A stretch of DNA of 64,000 bases, taken from an uncultured Bacilli bacterium. GTDB lineage: Bacteria; Bacillota_I; Bacilli_A; RF39; UBA660. The position numbers were made by a program, and so were the translations under genes. The stretch spans positions 132,009 to 196,008 of the forward strand of contig CAKPNA010000001.1 of NCBI GenBank assembly GCA_934168275.1, in the 5' to 3' direction. The notes under the pieces are model-generated. The model was not told the DNA's origin and made no database searches. It was given only the letters and a program-made list of their open reading frames with translations. How positions within the stretch are numbered: the stretch's first letter is position 1; the number at the start of each line of letters is the position of its first letter. Below, piece by piece: positions 3,460 through 64,000 of the stretch.

Positions 3460-3516
3460 TTAGCCCCCCCCCCCCGGTAAACTTGGAGTTAACTTTTTAT
3501 TAACTTTATTATCCAT
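3460..3516 (-). CDS. putative leader peptide ORF (18 aa, MDNKVNKKLTPSLPGGGG) containing the poly-G tract
   Basis: AAAGGAG Shine-Dalgarno (3532..3526) sits 9 nt upstream of the ATG at 3516..3514. The frame runs through 12 G and hits TAA at 3462..3460. With 13 G the frame would continue and stop at a UAA inside the loop of the downstream terminator. Confidence 0.4.
   Translation of the reverse strand: MDNKVNKKLTPSLPGGGG
3464..3475 (-). repeat. homopolymeric tract of 12 C on the plus strand (12 G on the coding strand); candidate slipped-strand phase-variation site
   Basis: Direct count of 12 consecutive C in a roughly 27% GC genome. The tract lies inside the leader ORF, 115-126 nt upstream of the paralog A ATG. 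Confidence 0.95.
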
Positions 3517-58388: not shown

Positions 58389-59288
58389 CTATCTTTTACG
58401 TCTTCTAACTAATCTATTTTGTTTAATAACTTCATCTTTTGGAATATCAATATTTAATTTATAAGATATCTTAGGTTCTCTAAATTTAACAGTAGGCATA
58501 TCTTTTAATGATTCAAGACTATATTTATCCATTAAATAATCATATGCTCTAACCATATACTTATCTCTTCCCATAAATATAATAGTATATACTGAAACAG
58601 TAATATTATCTTTATCTATCTTAACCATAACTATATCATCATCAGTTAAATATGTATCAGTAGGAATATCATCAATAGATATATTATTAATACTATTATC
58701 TAATAACCCCAACATATCTTCACCAATAGTATCATCATCACTATCTCTATATTCCTCTAATTCTCTTCTATACTTATCCTTAAGTAAACTAACTATATCT
58801 TCTTCCTTAGGTATACATAAGTCTTTATAAAATTCCCCATCTAAATTCATTAAATAACTATTACTATTATTAAATAAATTATCTAATTCTTCTCTAGATA
58901 ACATAAGTACTCTATCATTAGAATTAACAAACTTAGTTAAAACTAAAGCACTATTACCATCTCTAACAATATACTTCTCATATACATTTCCATCTTTAAT
59001 CATTACATATACTTTATCATAATCAAATAATTGTATAGTATGTTTAACTTCAAATAACCCATTTTTTGATATATAAGTAGGAATATTAGCATAAGCAAAA
59101 GACTTTCTTCTATCATCTTCCATATATCTATTAATAGATACACAAGGATAATCTATAACATCATGATATATAATACCATCTCTACTAAATATAGTTAATG
59201 AATCATTATAACCAATACTTACTTGTACACAATCACTACCTACATAAGGTCTACTAACTCTCTCTACTATTTCATCCCTATTTTTCAT
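58389..59288 (-). CDS. hypothetical protein (299 aa)
   Basis: ORF with a basic C-terminal tail; no recognised motif. Confidence 0.45.
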   Translation of the reverse strand: MKNRDEIVERVSRPYVGSDCVQVSIGYNDSLTIFSRDGIIYHDVIDYPCVSINRYMEDDRRKSFAYANIPTYISKNGLFEVKHTIQLFDYDKVYVMIKDGNVYEKYIVRDGNSALVLTKFVNSNDRVLMLSREELDNLFNNSNSYLMNLDGEFYKDLCIPKEEDIVSLLKDKYRRELEEYRDSDDDTIGEDMLGLLDNSINNISIDDIPTDTYLTDDDIVMVKIDKDNITVSVYTIIFMGRDKYMVRAYDYLMDKYSLESLKDMPTVKFREPKISYKLNIDIPKDEVIKQNRLVRRRKR

Positions 59289-59574
59289 AACACTATCTCC
59301 TCACGTCATTTTATTCTATCACAATTATATATATTTTTAAACCACTACTATAAAATATTCTAAAAATACTTCAGATATCACTACCTGAAGTATATATTTA
59401 AATATAATTTAATCTATATTAGTGTTCAATACAATTTACTTACTAATATAGATTGTCTACAATCTTTTTAGAATTTTTTTAATTTTCAATCCATAGAATC
59501 TACCTGTTTCACATATAAAGGCAAAATATTACCATAGCAATTATATTGTTATAGATTTTGCCGAAGTAAACGTA

Positions 59575-59707
59575 CAAAAAATAGTAAAAATACGGACGGA
59601 CCCCGTTAGAGTTGTTGACGTTGTTGTTGTTCAAGTTCCCATCAGAGTCCAAGTTGAACTCGTTAGCATTCGAGTTGTTGAAGTTATACGGAGACAAAGC
59701 CCAAACT
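59575..59707 (-). pseudogene. orphan internal fragment (~133 bp) homologous to the GC-rich 3' segment of the secreted-protein family
   Basis: About 75% nt identity to 60040-60150 of paralog B (..tgggctttgtctccg...aacgagttc...ggggtccgtccg..), encoding ..SPYNFNNSNANEFNLDSDG...GVRP. Homology stops on both sides. Confidence 0.6.
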
Positions 59708-59890
59708 AAAAGTCAAAAACTAACGAAGCAATCTCACGGTAAGATCCTAAGTTAATTTATATAAACTATATCATATAGATTAACCCATAATAATATTTAT
59801 ATTGCCGGCTCCTATTTAGTCGCCGGACTTCACTAATAGATTATCTCTTTGTTAAGGGGTTACCTTTACCTCAAGATTATCTTTATTATT

Positions 59891-59914
59891 GGCCTTGAAA
59901 GGGTTTTCAAGGCC
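59891..59914. repeat. perfect 10 bp inverted repeat GGCCTTGAAA-GGGT-TTTCAAGGCC downstream of the paralog B stop
   Basis: Seen directly. GC-rich stem in an AT-rich spacer with no flanking U-tract on either strand. Confidence 0.6.
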
Positions 59915-59962
59915 ATCCATTCAAGCATTATGCAAGGGATAGAACTAATTTTCTTCCAAGCT

Positions 59963-61531
59963 CTATCCAATCACGAACGGATCTGCAGCAGTCCCTGATC
60001 CTCCTCCTGTCATCCCTATCCCCGGTTGAAGTGAAACGGACGGACGCACCCCACGAGGGGTATTGACGGTGCTGGAGTGCAAGTGCCCACCAGAGCTCAA
60101 GCCGAACTCGTCAGCAAACGGGTAGAGGAAGTCAAACGGAGACAAAGCCCAATAAGATTTTCCTGTATATAAGTAAAATGAACCATTTGCATCAGATGAA
60201 CTACTATAATATTTTCCTCCGGCATATACCATTTCATCAGCAGTTATTAATCCAACTGGATATGTTAATGCACCATTACCATTACTTGTATTTACTGTAA
60301 ACTTATCATTATCTTGAGCACATTTTAATGTTGGTGTTGGATTTGATACCTTAGGTCCTACTCTAGATGTTGGACCATATACTGTTTTATTTGTTCCATA
60401 TCCTAATGTTGTATAACTACTATAATTCCCACCATTTGAATTTGCTAAATCTGTTACTATACTTCTATCATTACACCATACTGTATCTTCTAATTGTAAT
60501 GTATAACTTGTCATATTATTTTCATACCATGTATCTATTACTCCCTTTATTGTTGAATCATTTGTATTGGCATGAGTACTTGCGTATGTACTTGATTCAG
60601 TAGTTCCAAACATATATCCTACATATGCATTATCATCACGAGTTGAATTAAATGCTGAACTACCTATTGTAGAATTATTACCTGTATTATTACATTGACC
60701 ATTAGATGGTACTCCATCATAGATAAGTTTTACTCCACCTGTCTCGGTAGTTCTTACTATTCGCCAACAGAAATTAGCAAATATTACACGATTATCTACA
60801 TTACCTCGATAGTAATATACCGGATTACCACTATCGGTATTAGTAATCATAAATATACCATTAGTATTATCTTGTACTGATGTTTTACTAAAATCAATAG
60901 TAGTTGTTGTATCAGCATTATTTTTTATATAATCATATAAAGGAATAGTTTTTACTGCTTCTGTTGTTAAATTAGGATTATTACTAGATGTTCCTTTCAT
61001 ATTAACTGATATACTACCTGATAGATTTTGAGTTTCTTTTTCATCTAACCATATATAGAGATAATATGTTTTGGTATAAGTATTACTTGTATTAGTAATA
61101 TTATCATAGTCATTCTTTACTATCCATATATCACTACCTACTGTGGCATTACTAAAATTACCATTTGCAATTAAACCATCAGTACAACTATTCTCAGATG
61201 TTGTTAAAGCATATTTCATTGTAGTAGTCTTTAAACTATCCGATAATGTTGCTACATTCATACCTATACTAAATGATACTTTACCACCTGAAGTATTATT
61301 GGAGGTTGCCACAATTTTCTTCTTAATAGCATATTCACTAGTACACTTAGATGGCATGAATGAAGTATTAGTATTGCCTCCTCCATCAATAGTCATTGTC
61401 AAATTACCTGCTCTAATTTGGGTAATATTAGTGGCTACTGCACTTGTTGTATAATAAGCAAATGTTCCTCCAATACCTAGCATTACTATTGATAAAATAG
61501 TTAAAATAATAAATAATCTCTTTCTTTCCAT
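59963..61531 (-). CDS. large secreted Asn/Thr/Gly/Tyr-rich protein with SipW-cognate (TasA-type) signal peptide; paralog B
   Basis: 522 aa. The first ~92 aa are identical to paralog A, then diverged but homologous (..VYYYRG.VDN.V.FANFCWRIVRTTETGGVKLIYDG.PSNGQCNNTG..). GC-rich C-terminus ..GVRPSVSLQPGIGMTGGGSGTAADPFVIG. Confidence 0.75.
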   Translation of the reverse strand: MERKRLFIILTILSIVMLGIGGTFAYYTTSAVATNITQIRAGNLTMTIDGGGNTNTSFMPSKCTSEYAIKKKIVATSNNTSGGKVSFSIGMNVATLSDSLKTTTMKYALTTSENSCTDGLIANGNFSNATVGSDIWIVKNDYDNITNTSNTYTKTYYLYIWLDEKETQNLSGSISVNMKGTSSNNPNLTTEAVKTIPLYDYIKNNADTTTTIDFSKTSVQDNTNGIFMITNTDSGNPVYYYRGNVDNRVIFANFCWRIVRTTETGGVKLIYDGVPSNGQCNNTGNNSTIGSSAFNSTRDDNAYVGYMFGTTESSTYASTHANTNDSTIKGVIDTWYENNMTSYTLQLEDTVWCNDRSIVTDLANSNGGNYSSYTTLGYGTNKTVYGPTSRVGPKVSNPTPTLKCAQDNDKFTVNTSNGNGALTYPVGLITADEMVYAGGKYYSSSSDANGSFYLYTGKSYWALSPFDFLYPFADEFGLSSGGHLHSSTVNTPRGVRPSVSLQPGIGMTGGGSGTAADPFVIG

Positions 61532-61553
61532 AAATGTACAATCCCTTTCTTAG

Positions 61554-61609
61554 TAAATAAAAAACTACGATAAAAAGAGTCTAATCTCTTAAACTCTCTA
61601 TATCGTAGT
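61554..61609 (-). terminator. intrinsic terminator/attenuator hairpin upstream of paralog B; copy of the 3372-3427 element
   Basis: Arms at 61564-61580 and 61593-61609, followed by a U-tract on the mRNA. Nearly identical to the locus A hairpin. Confidence 0.6.
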
Positions 61610-61700
61610 TATCTTTATTTTTATTTAACAAACAGTTGTTATTATTTGCCCCCCCCCCAAGTAAACTTAGAGTTAACATATTATTATAATTCTTTTTCAT
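61581..61700 (-). CDS. putative leader peptide ORF (39 aa) containing the poly-G tract and terminating inside the terminator loop
   Basis: AAAGGAG Shine-Dalgarno 9 nt upstream of the ATG at 61700. MKKNYNNMLTLSLLGGGANNNNCLLNKNKDNYDIESLRD, with the UAG at 61583..61581 as the last 3 nt of the hairpin loop. Confidence 0.4.
   Translation of the reverse strand: MKKNYNNMLTLSLLGGGANNNNCLLNKNKDNYDIESLRD
61649..61658 (-). repeat. homopolymeric tract of 10 C on the plus strand (10 G on the coding strand) inside the leader ORF
   Basis: Direct count. Confidence 0.95.
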
Positions 61701-61787
61701 AAATTTTAACTCCTTTCTAGTAAACGTTCGTTTGCTATAACCTTTACTCGGAAGAAATATGTTTGTTTATTTTCTTACCTTAAATTA

Positions 61788-61816
61788 ATTATATAACAAT
61801 TTAGATTTATATACAA
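61788..61816 (-). promoter_or_regulatory. sigma-A-like promoter (TTGTAT-17-TATAAT)
   Basis: Minus strand reads TTGTATataaatctaaattgttaTATAATtaatttaagg. The -10 hexamer aligns with the TAGAAT of locus A. Confidence 0.45.
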
Positions 61817-61853
61817 CCCATAAATTTAACTTTTTCTTGTAATATTACATACC

Positions 61854-64000
61854 TTAATCTACTTCTTTACCACTAAGTATTCTAGCAGGACTCTTTCTTA
61901 TAGTATTAAATACCGGTATTAACCCTACTATAATATTAAATAAATACATAAGTATAATACATAATATCATAATATATATATTCATAACATAATTTCTACC
62001 TATATAATCAATATCACTAAGTACATATAAACAATAACTCATAAATAATACTCCTGGAAGTGATGCTAAAGTACTAATAGCAAATGATTCAGAAATAAAC
62101 ATCTTATATATATCTAACTTCTTAACTCCTATAGCTCTATAAATACCTACTTCTTTAATTCTCGATAAGAATGAAGATCTAGTCATTAATATTATCTCTA
62201 TTAAAGATATTCCTAACATAATACTAGCTACTATTAAACTAGCATTAACACTATCTTTCATACTATCTATATAACTATTTCTATCACTTTGATATACATC
62301 AATAACTTTAACACCTATATCTTTAAAATTATTAATTACCTTATCTTTATCTTTACTATATATAATAATACCCTTACTATTCTCTATTAAATCATACTTC
62401 TTAGTATTACTACTAACAAAATAACTATTAATATCATCTTCACTTTTATAATATCCTACTACTACTAATTTTTTACCATTAACTTTCTTATCAATTTCTT
62501 TATTTAATTTATATTCTTCTTGATAACTTTCATTAATAATAACTTCATAATCATTACTAGGTTCTCTTCCTTTAGTAATAACTATCTTATCTCTATAACT
62601 ATCATAACTATATATACTACTATTATCTAATTCTTCACTAATAGCTACACTGCTAACTCCAAATCCATAGTCATAATCATATCCTGCTTTACTATTAATA
62701 ATTATATTATATAATTCATTTCTACTAGCATATATTGAAGGACTACCCATATCTACTATACCTACTATTGTATACTCTTTATTAGCAAATACTTTACTAT
62801 TAACCATTCTCTCTACTTCATAGTACCCAATCATTTCTAGCCCTTTAGTCTTATCATAAGCCATCTTATCAATAACTATTTCATTATCATTCTCTGGATA
62901 TCTACCATATATAATATCTTTACTACTAATCATCTCATTACTAGCAATAGAACCATTAATAATAATATTACTATCTTTAGTTTGATAATATTCTTGATTA
63001 CTAACTTTCATTCCTACCTTACTATTACCTGGTAGCATATATATAATACCATCCATACCTTCATAATTAAGATAATCTTCTACTTTAACTTTATTCCTCT
63101 CTATCTTTAAATAATTCTTATTAGTAGCAATAAACTCACTATCATTAACTGTTAATAACCCAATAATATTACTAACTGAATAAGTAACAAATAAAGCCGC
63201 TAAAAAGAATCCCCCTAATAATAATTTCTTAACAAAACTATATCCAAATACTTTCTTAAATCCATGTTTAATAATACTACCAAGATTAAATATTGAACTA
63301 TATTTAAGTTTTATATCTTTATTAATTATCTTATCAAAATCAAATGAATACTTCTCATATACACTTTTGTCTAACTTCTTATAATGATCATTAACTATCT
63401 CTATAGAACTATTACCATCTACTACTTCAATTCTACTATCATCATTACTTTTAATATATATATTCCCATTCTTAACAGCAATAACTAAGTTTAATTTCTT
63501 ATCTTCATCATTATAATAATCAATATTAATATTATTATCACTATTTTTATAACTATATTTAAAATCTTTTAAATATAAAGTATTATCTATTCTATAATCT
63601 ATCTTATCATCATGTTTATTTATATAATCTTTAACAATTGTTCCATCAGTTATCTCTAATATTCTACTAGCATAAAACTTAGCAATATCTACTTCATGAG
63701 TAACTAATAATACTAACTTATCTCTTGATATAGCTTTAATAATATTCATAATCTCAATCGTATTCTTACTATCTAAGTTTCCTGTTGGTTCATCCGCTAA
63801 AATAATATCTGGATTCTTTACTAAGGCTCTCGCAATACCAACTCTTTGTCTTTCACCACCTGATAGCATTCCACAAGGTCGATAACGATAACGATACATT
63901 CCAACACGTTCTAATATATATTCAACACGTATCTTTATCTCTTTCTTATCCTTAATACCTATCATCTTAAGAACCATAGCAACATTATCATAAACACTCA
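61854..64000 (-). CDS. ABC transporter ATP-binding/permease fusion protein (ATPase fused to FtsX-like permease); 5' end lies outside the window
   Basis: ..[32 protein letters not shown].. followed by a large extracellular domain and a C-terminal 3-4 TM FtsX-like region. The frame stays open upstream of the listed Met to position 64000 (..SVYDNVA..). Confidence 0.75.

Follow-up and report, generated by a model that had tools for sequence, protein, structure and literature searches.

Switching of a surface structure by the reading frame of a short leader peptide has been described for the pil1 and pil3 pili of Streptococcus gallolyticus (Danne et al. 2014), in which GCAGA repeats shift the frame of a leader open reading frame (ORF) followed by a stem-loop terminator of -18.7 or -28.2 kcal/mol, respectively (PMC3894217). 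Expression of pil1/pil3 is high when the frame ends within the hairpin or beside it, and isolates whose leader stop lies at least 28 nt upstream of it show heterogeneous, mostly low expression (PMC3894217). The model was confirmed with leader start-codon, triple-stop and terminator-deletion mutants, all of which behaved as predicted (PMC3894217). Here we describe a module of the same type, built around a poly-G tract, in a 64,000-nt stretch of contig CAKPNA010000001.1 from an uncultured gut Bacilli bacterium; this whole stretch is referred to below as the window. The module is present at two places in the window, designated loci A and B, and the analysis centers on locus B.

We consider it likely, on the basis of sequence comparison, that the locus B module is a phase-variable transcription attenuator, and it probably switches a hypervariable surface-protein gene of its host on and off. 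An earlier note on this DNA had proposed such an arrangement and implied that it was highly novel. This estimate has to be lowered, as the mechanism itself is already known from S. gallolyticus pil1/pil3 (PMC3894217); our literature searches found no case of this switch type beyond that species.

Layout of the module at locus B

The locus B module lies on the minus strand throughout, in the order promoter, Shine–Dalgarno (SD) site, leader ORF with a run of ten G (G10), hairpin, U-tract and main gene. Its promoter, read directly, consists of a -35 hexamer TTGTAT (61816–61811) and a -10 hexamer TATAAT (61793–61788) separated by a 17-nt spacer. Because the -35 box matches the TTGACA consensus at 3/6 positions, this promoter was not listed by a simple promoter scan; both promoter and hairpin were recognised by folding and conservation, and the simple promoter/terminator scan called neither. 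Between paralogs, sequence conservation starts at this -35 box, the motif TTG(C/T)A(T/C) being kept at its position even where the upstream genes differ. For the same reasons, namely the differing upstream genes and the onset of conservation at the module's own -35 box, the hairpin was rejected as a terminator of the upstream gene.

The leader SD site AAAGGAG (61716–61710) is invariant over the aligned loci and lies 9 nt 5′ of the leader ATG (61700–61698). In the G10 frame the leader ORF spans 61700–61581, comprising 39 codons and a UAG stop (61583–61581). It reads MKKNYNNMLTLSLLGGGANNNNCLLNKNKDNYDIESLRD* and is annotated as a 39-aa gene by the gene caller on the source contig. The G10 tract (61658–61649), the mutable element of the module, fills leader codons 15–17 and extends one base into codon 18. 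From the -10 box to the tract the distance is ~130 nt, and from the tract to the main ATG it is 118 nt. The repeat is located neither inside the structural ORF (522 aa, intact) nor in or upstream of the promoter spacer; a hypermutable repeat inside an SD-preceded short leader ORF was also found in 20+ related loci. Only two runs of nine or more G occur in the 26% G+C, 64-kb window, at loci A and B, with 0.01 expected by chance.

Changing the tract length moves the leader stop. With G11 the leader would end at a TAA (61644–61642) at position -62 relative to the 3′ upper arm of the hairpin (AGACUCU), and with G12 at another TAA (61627–61625) at position -45, 14 nt before the hairpin base; the UAG of the G10 frame is at position -1. 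The G12 state could be intermediate instead of fully OFF. Direct reading thus bears out both the layout and the 39-codon G10 leader given in the earlier note, as well as its statement that the leader stops before the hairpin at G11 or G12.

The hairpin (61610–61563) is predicted by RNAfold to contain 10 bp, a 1×1 mismatch and 11 bp, capped by the GNRA tetraloop GAGA (61588–61585). Its energy is -24.8 kcal/mol (z -8.2), compared to -27.5 kcal/mol at locus A, with z about -8. A short stem with a 12-nt loop holding the leader stop codon had been assumed before. In the fold obtained here the UAG instead belongs to the upper stem, in its 3′ strand, and lies 1 nt beyond the tetraloop. Since it lies past the tetraloop, a ribosome at this UAG would have opened the entire 5′ arm, so the correction strengthens the original argument that a terminating ribosome occludes this arm. 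The hairpin is followed by a U-tract (61562–61555, minus strand; UUUUAUUU), which together with the two preceding paired U's forms UUUUUU-A-UUU; 5–7 T's are kept at this place in all loci. Next come the main-gene SD site GAAAGGGA (61549–61542) and the main ATG (61531).

Pairing within the hairpin is kept in 98.5% of pair cells among 19 sequences. The variation observed comprises ~20 changes to G-U wobbles, in the 5′ arm, and one compensatory GC-to-AU change (locus L114), a pattern that fits an RNA structure on the minus strand. In Rfam 15, no family matched any part of the window at the gathering score, and an E-value scan of 59200–61900 returned for the hairpin sub-threshold matches to microRNA precursor models only.

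These parts suggest the following course of events. Transcription from the module's promoter would produce an RNA whose first ~220 nt include the SD-preceded leader ORF with its poly-G, and a stable intrinsic terminator (the 21-bp hairpin and U-tract) would come next, ~30 nt before the main start. Slipped-strand mispairing at replication would alter the number of G's and shift the leader frame. In the G10 frame, the pioneer ribosome, if coupled to RNA polymerase, would travel up the 5′ arm and halt at the UAG just past the hairpin tip; the terminator would then be unable to fold while the polymerase crosses the U-tract, and the main gene would be transcribed (ON). In both remaining frames, a TAA 14–31 nt before the hairpin would release the ribosome, allowing the terminator to fold and transcription to end (OFF or low).

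The leader frame might also control the main gene post-transcriptionally, with the hairpin acting as a stability or processing element and not as a transcription terminator, or with ribosomes there aiding translation of the main ORF. We regard this as unlikely. It would agree with the simple terminator scan, which did not call the hairpin, and with the leaders of loci L060/L067, which overlap the main start (TAAttATG), suggesting that translational coupling can occur. The miss of the scan is, however, most likely due to its own criteria, possibly to the internal stem mismatch, and a conserved 21-bp, -25 kcal/mol hairpin with 5–7 U's immediately following has the canonical form of an intrinsic terminator, for which terminator activity is predicted. 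In addition, the main SD site is unpaired in predicted folds and is located ~30 nt beyond the leader stop.

Reading frames, tract lengths and leader RNA in related loci

Related loci were gathered via a genome scan, a metagenome scan for the invariant hairpin 3′ arm and look-ups of identical proteins on other contigs. The resulting comparison set, drawn from assemblies of related gut Bacilli, comprises 28 distinct leader sequences; the metagenome scan yielded only 10 loci, and a scan of viral_contigs for the hairpin arm gave 0 matches. The hosts are uncultured Bacilli metagenome-assembled genomes, with labels including Bacillales UBA6414, Hadza "uncultured Bacilli" and "Tenericutes". The module is confined to the closest relatives, and homologs at 38–54% identity do not possess it.

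Wherever the hairpin is intact in this set, at least one frame runs open into it or ends no more than 2 nt short of it, and two frames are open in L114. Counted from the 3′ upper arm, the open frames end at -32, -20, -18, -9 or -1, the outermost stop falling 2 nt short of the hairpin base and the innermost lying just beyond the tip. The other frames end at -41 to -68 and stop 12–40 nt upstream of the hairpin. A random frame of the same composition would stay open for 22 codons with a probability of about 0.10. The earlier note had named two patterns that would speak against the switch, namely loci lacking the leader ORF and loci with stops in all three frames before the hairpin. No locus in the set shows the latter, and all leader-less loci (L001 and the P0042 and P0029 loci) are devoid of the hairpin too, the promoter being directly followed by the main-gene ribosome-binding site.

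The leader peptide is not conserved; from one locus to another, the frame in which identical nucleotides are read changes. The block GTTAACTCTAAGTTTAC, for instance, is read as MLTLSLL in most loci and as VNSMF in L009, L062 and L068. This is in line with the view that the architecture, and not the peptide, is what has been preserved.

Tract length varies among samples; the earlier note had proposed a comparison of this kind across isolates or metagenomes. The P0094 locus carries G12 in four contigs and G11 in two, and the P0111 locus carries G10 in two contigs and G11 in one, in both cases with an identical downstream protein. The position of locus B itself is occupied by G10 in the window, by G11 in L118/119 and by an interrupted tract in L069-78.

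Six tracts have independently decayed to six or fewer uninterrupted G's: GGTTGGGG in L009, GGGTGGGGGG in L066, GGAGGGG in L069-78 (the locus B ortholog in 10 samples), G5 in L087-93 and L111-113, TTTTGGGGGG in L114 and GGAGAAGGGG in L060/67. All six are in the hairpin-reaching frame (6/6; binomial p=0.0014). The intact tracts, by contrast, comprise 5 ON and 11 OFF, near the expected one-third, and differ from the decayed ones in this respect (Fisher p=0.006). ON and locked alleles differ in length by multiples of three, as in G10 versus the 7-nt GGAGGGG of the locus B ortholog and in G7 after ACT versus G9 after ACTT. The proposal that the leader frame sets ribosome access to the terminator thus gains support from open-frame conservation, from the bias of decayed tracts, from tract polymorphism and from the S. 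gallolyticus precedent (PMC3894217).

Several loci deviate from the full module. The paralogs L001, L094-L099 and L108-L110 possess the promoter and have no leader or hairpin, and the junction in L001 resembles a deletion between the module's flanking SD regions, which are similar to each other (AGAAAGGAG and AGAAAGGG). The modules of L060, L067 and L061 are degenerate and have lost the 5′ outer arm of the hairpin. L060/L067 have no tract either, and their leader ORF runs through the hairpin remnant as far as the main start codon, which it overlaps.

Locus A, the second copy within the window, is also encoded on the minus strand. Its promoter (3609–3581) combines TTGCAT, a 17-nt spacer and TAGAAT with a TG extension (TGcTAGAAT, extended -10). 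In the present G12 frame (tract at 3475–3464) its leader ORF (3516–3460) has 18 codons and ends with a TAA (3462–3460) directly after the tract; the open frame requires G10 or G13. The hairpin (3428–3381; GCGA tetraloop, -27.5 kcal/mol) precedes a gene (3349–1523) for a paralog of 608 aa, which has the same first ~93 residues as the locus B protein. From the sequence, locus B (G10) is predicted to be ON and locus A (G12) OFF. The two loci are 100% identical from the hairpin 3′ arm into the coding sequence, and this identity, as judged from the alignment, is a result of recent duplication or gene conversion. Their agreement is therefore no independent evidence of conservation, and the selection argument that the earlier note drew from a shared stop placement falls away, the more so as the open-frame stops differ: TAA at the top of the 5′ arm in locus A and UAG in the 3′ arm in locus B.

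The absence of any switch, with tract and small ORF being neutral remnants or the length differences assembly artefacts, and with expression independent of the tract, appears very improbable to us. Such a view can draw on the consensus nature of the tract data, the common descent of the loci and the recent duplication that links A and B. It is opposed by the G10–12 runs, which are about 100-fold above expectation in 26% G+C DNA and occur only at these modules, by retention of the tract across diverged paralogs, and by the significant frame bias of the decayed tracts. Moreover, the space from the terminator to the main SD site is too short to hold a further promoter.

The leader RNA may also be structured. 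A 5′-terminal stem-loop (61779–61750, minus strand) is formed by GGUAAGAAAAUA...UAUUUCUUCC, its loop holding element E1 (AAUAAACA); in L065, L068 and L080 the 3′ arm shifts register (UUUACCUU paired with AAGGUAA). It possibly plays a role in mRNA stability. RNAalifold further predicts a long-range structure of the leader (61781–61630, minus strand), in which the leader SD GGAGUUAA pairs with UUAACUCU within the leader ORF (in the block GTTAACTCTAAGTTTAC), a CU-rich 5′ segment (CUUCC) pairs with the G tract (GGGGG), and the 5′ AAUAAACA pairs with UGUUUGUU located 3′ of the tract; this last pairing is accompanied by one AU-to-GC compensatory event. RNAalifold gave no helix that would compete with the terminator for its 5′ arm.

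These pairings raise the question of whether the G tract acts as RNA and not via the frame, its length tuning a long-range structure or contact with a trans partner and the leader ORF being incidental. Such action could take the form of tract/CU-rich pairing, sequestration of the leader SD, an RNase III substrate (hmw-like) or a small RNA (sRNA) target (tlpB/RepG-like). Targeting by an sRNA has a precedent in H. pylori tlpB/RepG. The three predicted pairings with their compensatory event, and the conservation of leader nucleotides despite differing frames, speak in favor of RNA-level action, for which the 5′ untranslated region (5′-UTR) of H. influenzae hmw is another precedent (PMC12721329). 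We nevertheless hold it to be improbable. Action of this kind predicts no three-nucleotide periodicity, yet 6/6 decayed tracts are hairpin-reaching and ON/locked length differences are multiples of three; the predicted long-range structure cannot explain this periodicity. In every locus, two frames have stops immediately 3′ of the tract. Pairing of the G tract with the CU-rich segment was rejected as the primary explanation, because L065, L068 and L080 have UUUACCU in place of this partner and nevertheless retain G10–G12.

Several considerations weigh against the frame-controlled attenuator that we favor. The strong nucleotide conservation within the leader and its predicted long-range structure are left unexplained by this model, and the ON and OFF states are themselves predictions from sequence. 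At some loci the third frame comes as close as 12–14 nt to the hairpin and its OFF state may be incomplete, and transcriptional slippage on G10–12 could blur the states. Tract lengths were taken from metagenome consensus assemblies, in which G10–12 runs are error-prone and may contain sequencing errors, and the loci are related by descent, so the statistics overstate their independence. Finally, B. subtilis RNA polymerase outruns ribosomes, which would weaken ribosome-mediated antitermination. The S. gallolyticus case shows that ribosome-mediated antitermination works in a Firmicute (PMC3894217).

The gene under the proposed switch and its diversification

The gene controlled at locus B (61531–59963, minus strand) encodes a 522-aa protein with an N-terminal hydrophobic segment. 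Its homologs number >7000 and come almost entirely from gut metagenome assemblies; profile searches against Pfam, NCBIfam and PDB gave no match. With regard to a C-type-lectin fold around the variable region described below, the AlphaFold2 model, built from a 25-sequence alignment, is poor, with a predicted local distance difference test score (pLDDT) of 37.8.

The C-terminus of the gene contains a G+C-rich segment with the features of a variable region (VR; 60150–60040, minus strand) of a diversity-generating retroelement (DGR). The corresponding A-rich template repeat (TR; 59702–59592, minus strand) is located 337 nt downstream. The two differ by 27 mismatches, 21 of them at template adenines, with A accounting for 29% of the TR. 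By this signature the locus B gene is a DGR target. No ORF with a YxDD or IGxxxSQ motif was found in the 64-kb window, nor a reverse transcriptase (RT) match (RVT Pfam families) within 10 kb on the source contig; a search for DGR RT motifs over the window and all loci retrieved only the distant L037 (IGNMTSQ...YMDD).

In L088, L118 and L114, the VR-spacer-TR cassette of window 59288–60250 recurs downstream of the target genes; it follows locus B orthologs and also a different paralog with PcsB context. Several target genes thus seem, from their sequences, to carry their own TR copy with no adjacent RT, an unusual DGR layout. In L069-L078, 10 loci taken from 23 contigs, the spacer appears to have been deleted by recombination of VR with TR. 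The protein is 473 aa long there, ends in the TR-encoded NSNANEFNLNSDGNLNNNNVNNSNGVRPYF and is identical on the 23 contigs; its leader tract is GGAGGGG, in the ON frame.

The locus A gene contains a VR-like segment (1707–1597, minus strand) with 40/111 differences from the locus B TR, only 18 of them at adenines. No TR follows the gene; either the segment is a VR in decay, or a different template serves it. Hairpin or cruciform elements occur downstream of the VR in other DGRs. Two hairpins are similarly placed at locus B: a perfect 10-bp one (GGCCUUGAAA-ACCC-UUUCAAGGCC; 59914–59891, minus strand), ~50 nt past the stop of the VR-bearing gene, and a second, G+C-rich one near 59825–59800.

Elsewhere in the window, the minus strand encodes an IS605-family OrfB/TnpB-like protein (51662–50508; Pfam HTH_OrfB_IS605, OrfB_IS605 and a Cas12f1-like TNB domain) and a 728-aa protein (8279–6093) with a prepilin-type N-terminal methylation motif and a Listeria-Bacteroides repeat. 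Located near locus A, the latter is a second surface-protein candidate and has no poly-G module.

The locus links two diversification strategies that are usually studied apart, given that one or more of the controlled genes are DGR targets. We tentatively speculate, with more doubt than conviction, that in these reduced-genome gut Bacilli the poly-G attenuators would pick the expressed paralogs stochastically, several of which, using their own VR-spacer-TR cassettes and an RT encoded elsewhere, would hypermutate a ligand-binding tip, with long-range RNA structure gating leader translation. If so, one surface-protein family would be varied in two layers, and this would be the first link between simple sequence repeat (SSR) phase variation and a DGR, as well as the first homopolymer leader-peptide attenuator. 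The SSR/DGR link yields testable predictions for metagenomic read-level and metatranscriptomic data.

The occurrence of a homopolymer version in an unrelated uncultured gut lineage, with several paralogs per genome, suggests that the mechanism is more general than the pili of one species. Surveys may score "intergenic" homopolymer tracts as promoter effects or ignore them when they act via small ORFs. For an unculturable organism, the natural allele series (predicted ON, OFF, locked ON and module deleted) itself serves as evidence.

Comparison with known switches

As in S. gallolyticus pil1/pil3, a promoter is followed by an SD-preceded leader ORF with a hypermutable repeat, a terminator and a structural gene, and the frame sets the stop position. 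Hairpin energies are comparable as well (-18.7 / -28.2 kcal/mol for pil1/pil3 and -24.8 / -27.5 kcal/mol for loci B/A). Both systems have more than one locus per genome, a Firmicute host and surface or secreted targets (predicted here). The constitutive terminator-deletion mutant of S. gallolyticus is matched by the natural L001, P0042 and P0029 loci, which have neither leader nor hairpin. In contrast to GCAGA, the repeat described here is a mononucleotide G, and there is no sequence homology with the pil1 leader; the match would thus be one of mechanism and not of descent. One-third of the frames is ON here (predicted), compared with two-thirds in S. gallolyticus, and the controlled genes are paralogs of a DGR-diversified family whose fold was left unassigned by profile searches, in place of sortase pili. 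Further differences are the uncultured low-G+C gut Bacilli host, the natural locked-ON and module-deleted alleles and the predicted long-range leader structure, all read here from sequence.

Direct blocking of a hairpin by a ribosome is familiar from E. coli pyrBI, where the ribosome following RNA polymerase into the attenuator hairpin prevents its folding and no antiterminator hairpin is required. The input of pyrBI is physiological, namely uridine triphosphate (UTP)-dependent polymerase pausing, whereas a heritable, stochastic leader frameshift would act here at the genetic level. Attenuators of the trp/his type, which sense amino acids, differ in that leader codons are not conserved in our loci and no competing antiterminator helix is predicted (RNAalifold).

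In C. difficile cwpV, formation of an intrinsic terminator before a surface-protein gene depends on the state of the 5′ leader DNA, which changes heritably. That change is a recombinase-driven inversion and its effect is independent of translation, whereas the locus B switch would depend on the leader frame. SSR phase variation in Neisseria, Haemophilus, Campylobacter and Treponema shares with our loci the homopolymeric G switch, the surface multigene family and the mixed ON/OFF states. Unlike in classical SSR switching (pilC/opa and porA/opc/hif/tpr types), the tract here lies outside both structural ORF and promoter, and the structural ORF is intact in all states.

A further group of SSRs is located in 5′-UTRs and acts via RNA structure, H. 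pylori tlpB/RepG and M. catarrhalis uspA1 being among the cases. Systems of this group show a graded length response with no period of three, and no leader ORF is needed. What they share with locus B, as exemplified by H. influenzae hmw, is a repeat transcribed in the 5′ leader and situated within a predicted long duplex (PMC12721329). Judged from the sequences compared, the features that set the present system apart are the homopolymer, the single ON frame out of three, the several paralogs per genome in mixed states and, at least at locus B, a controlled gene that is itself a DGR target.

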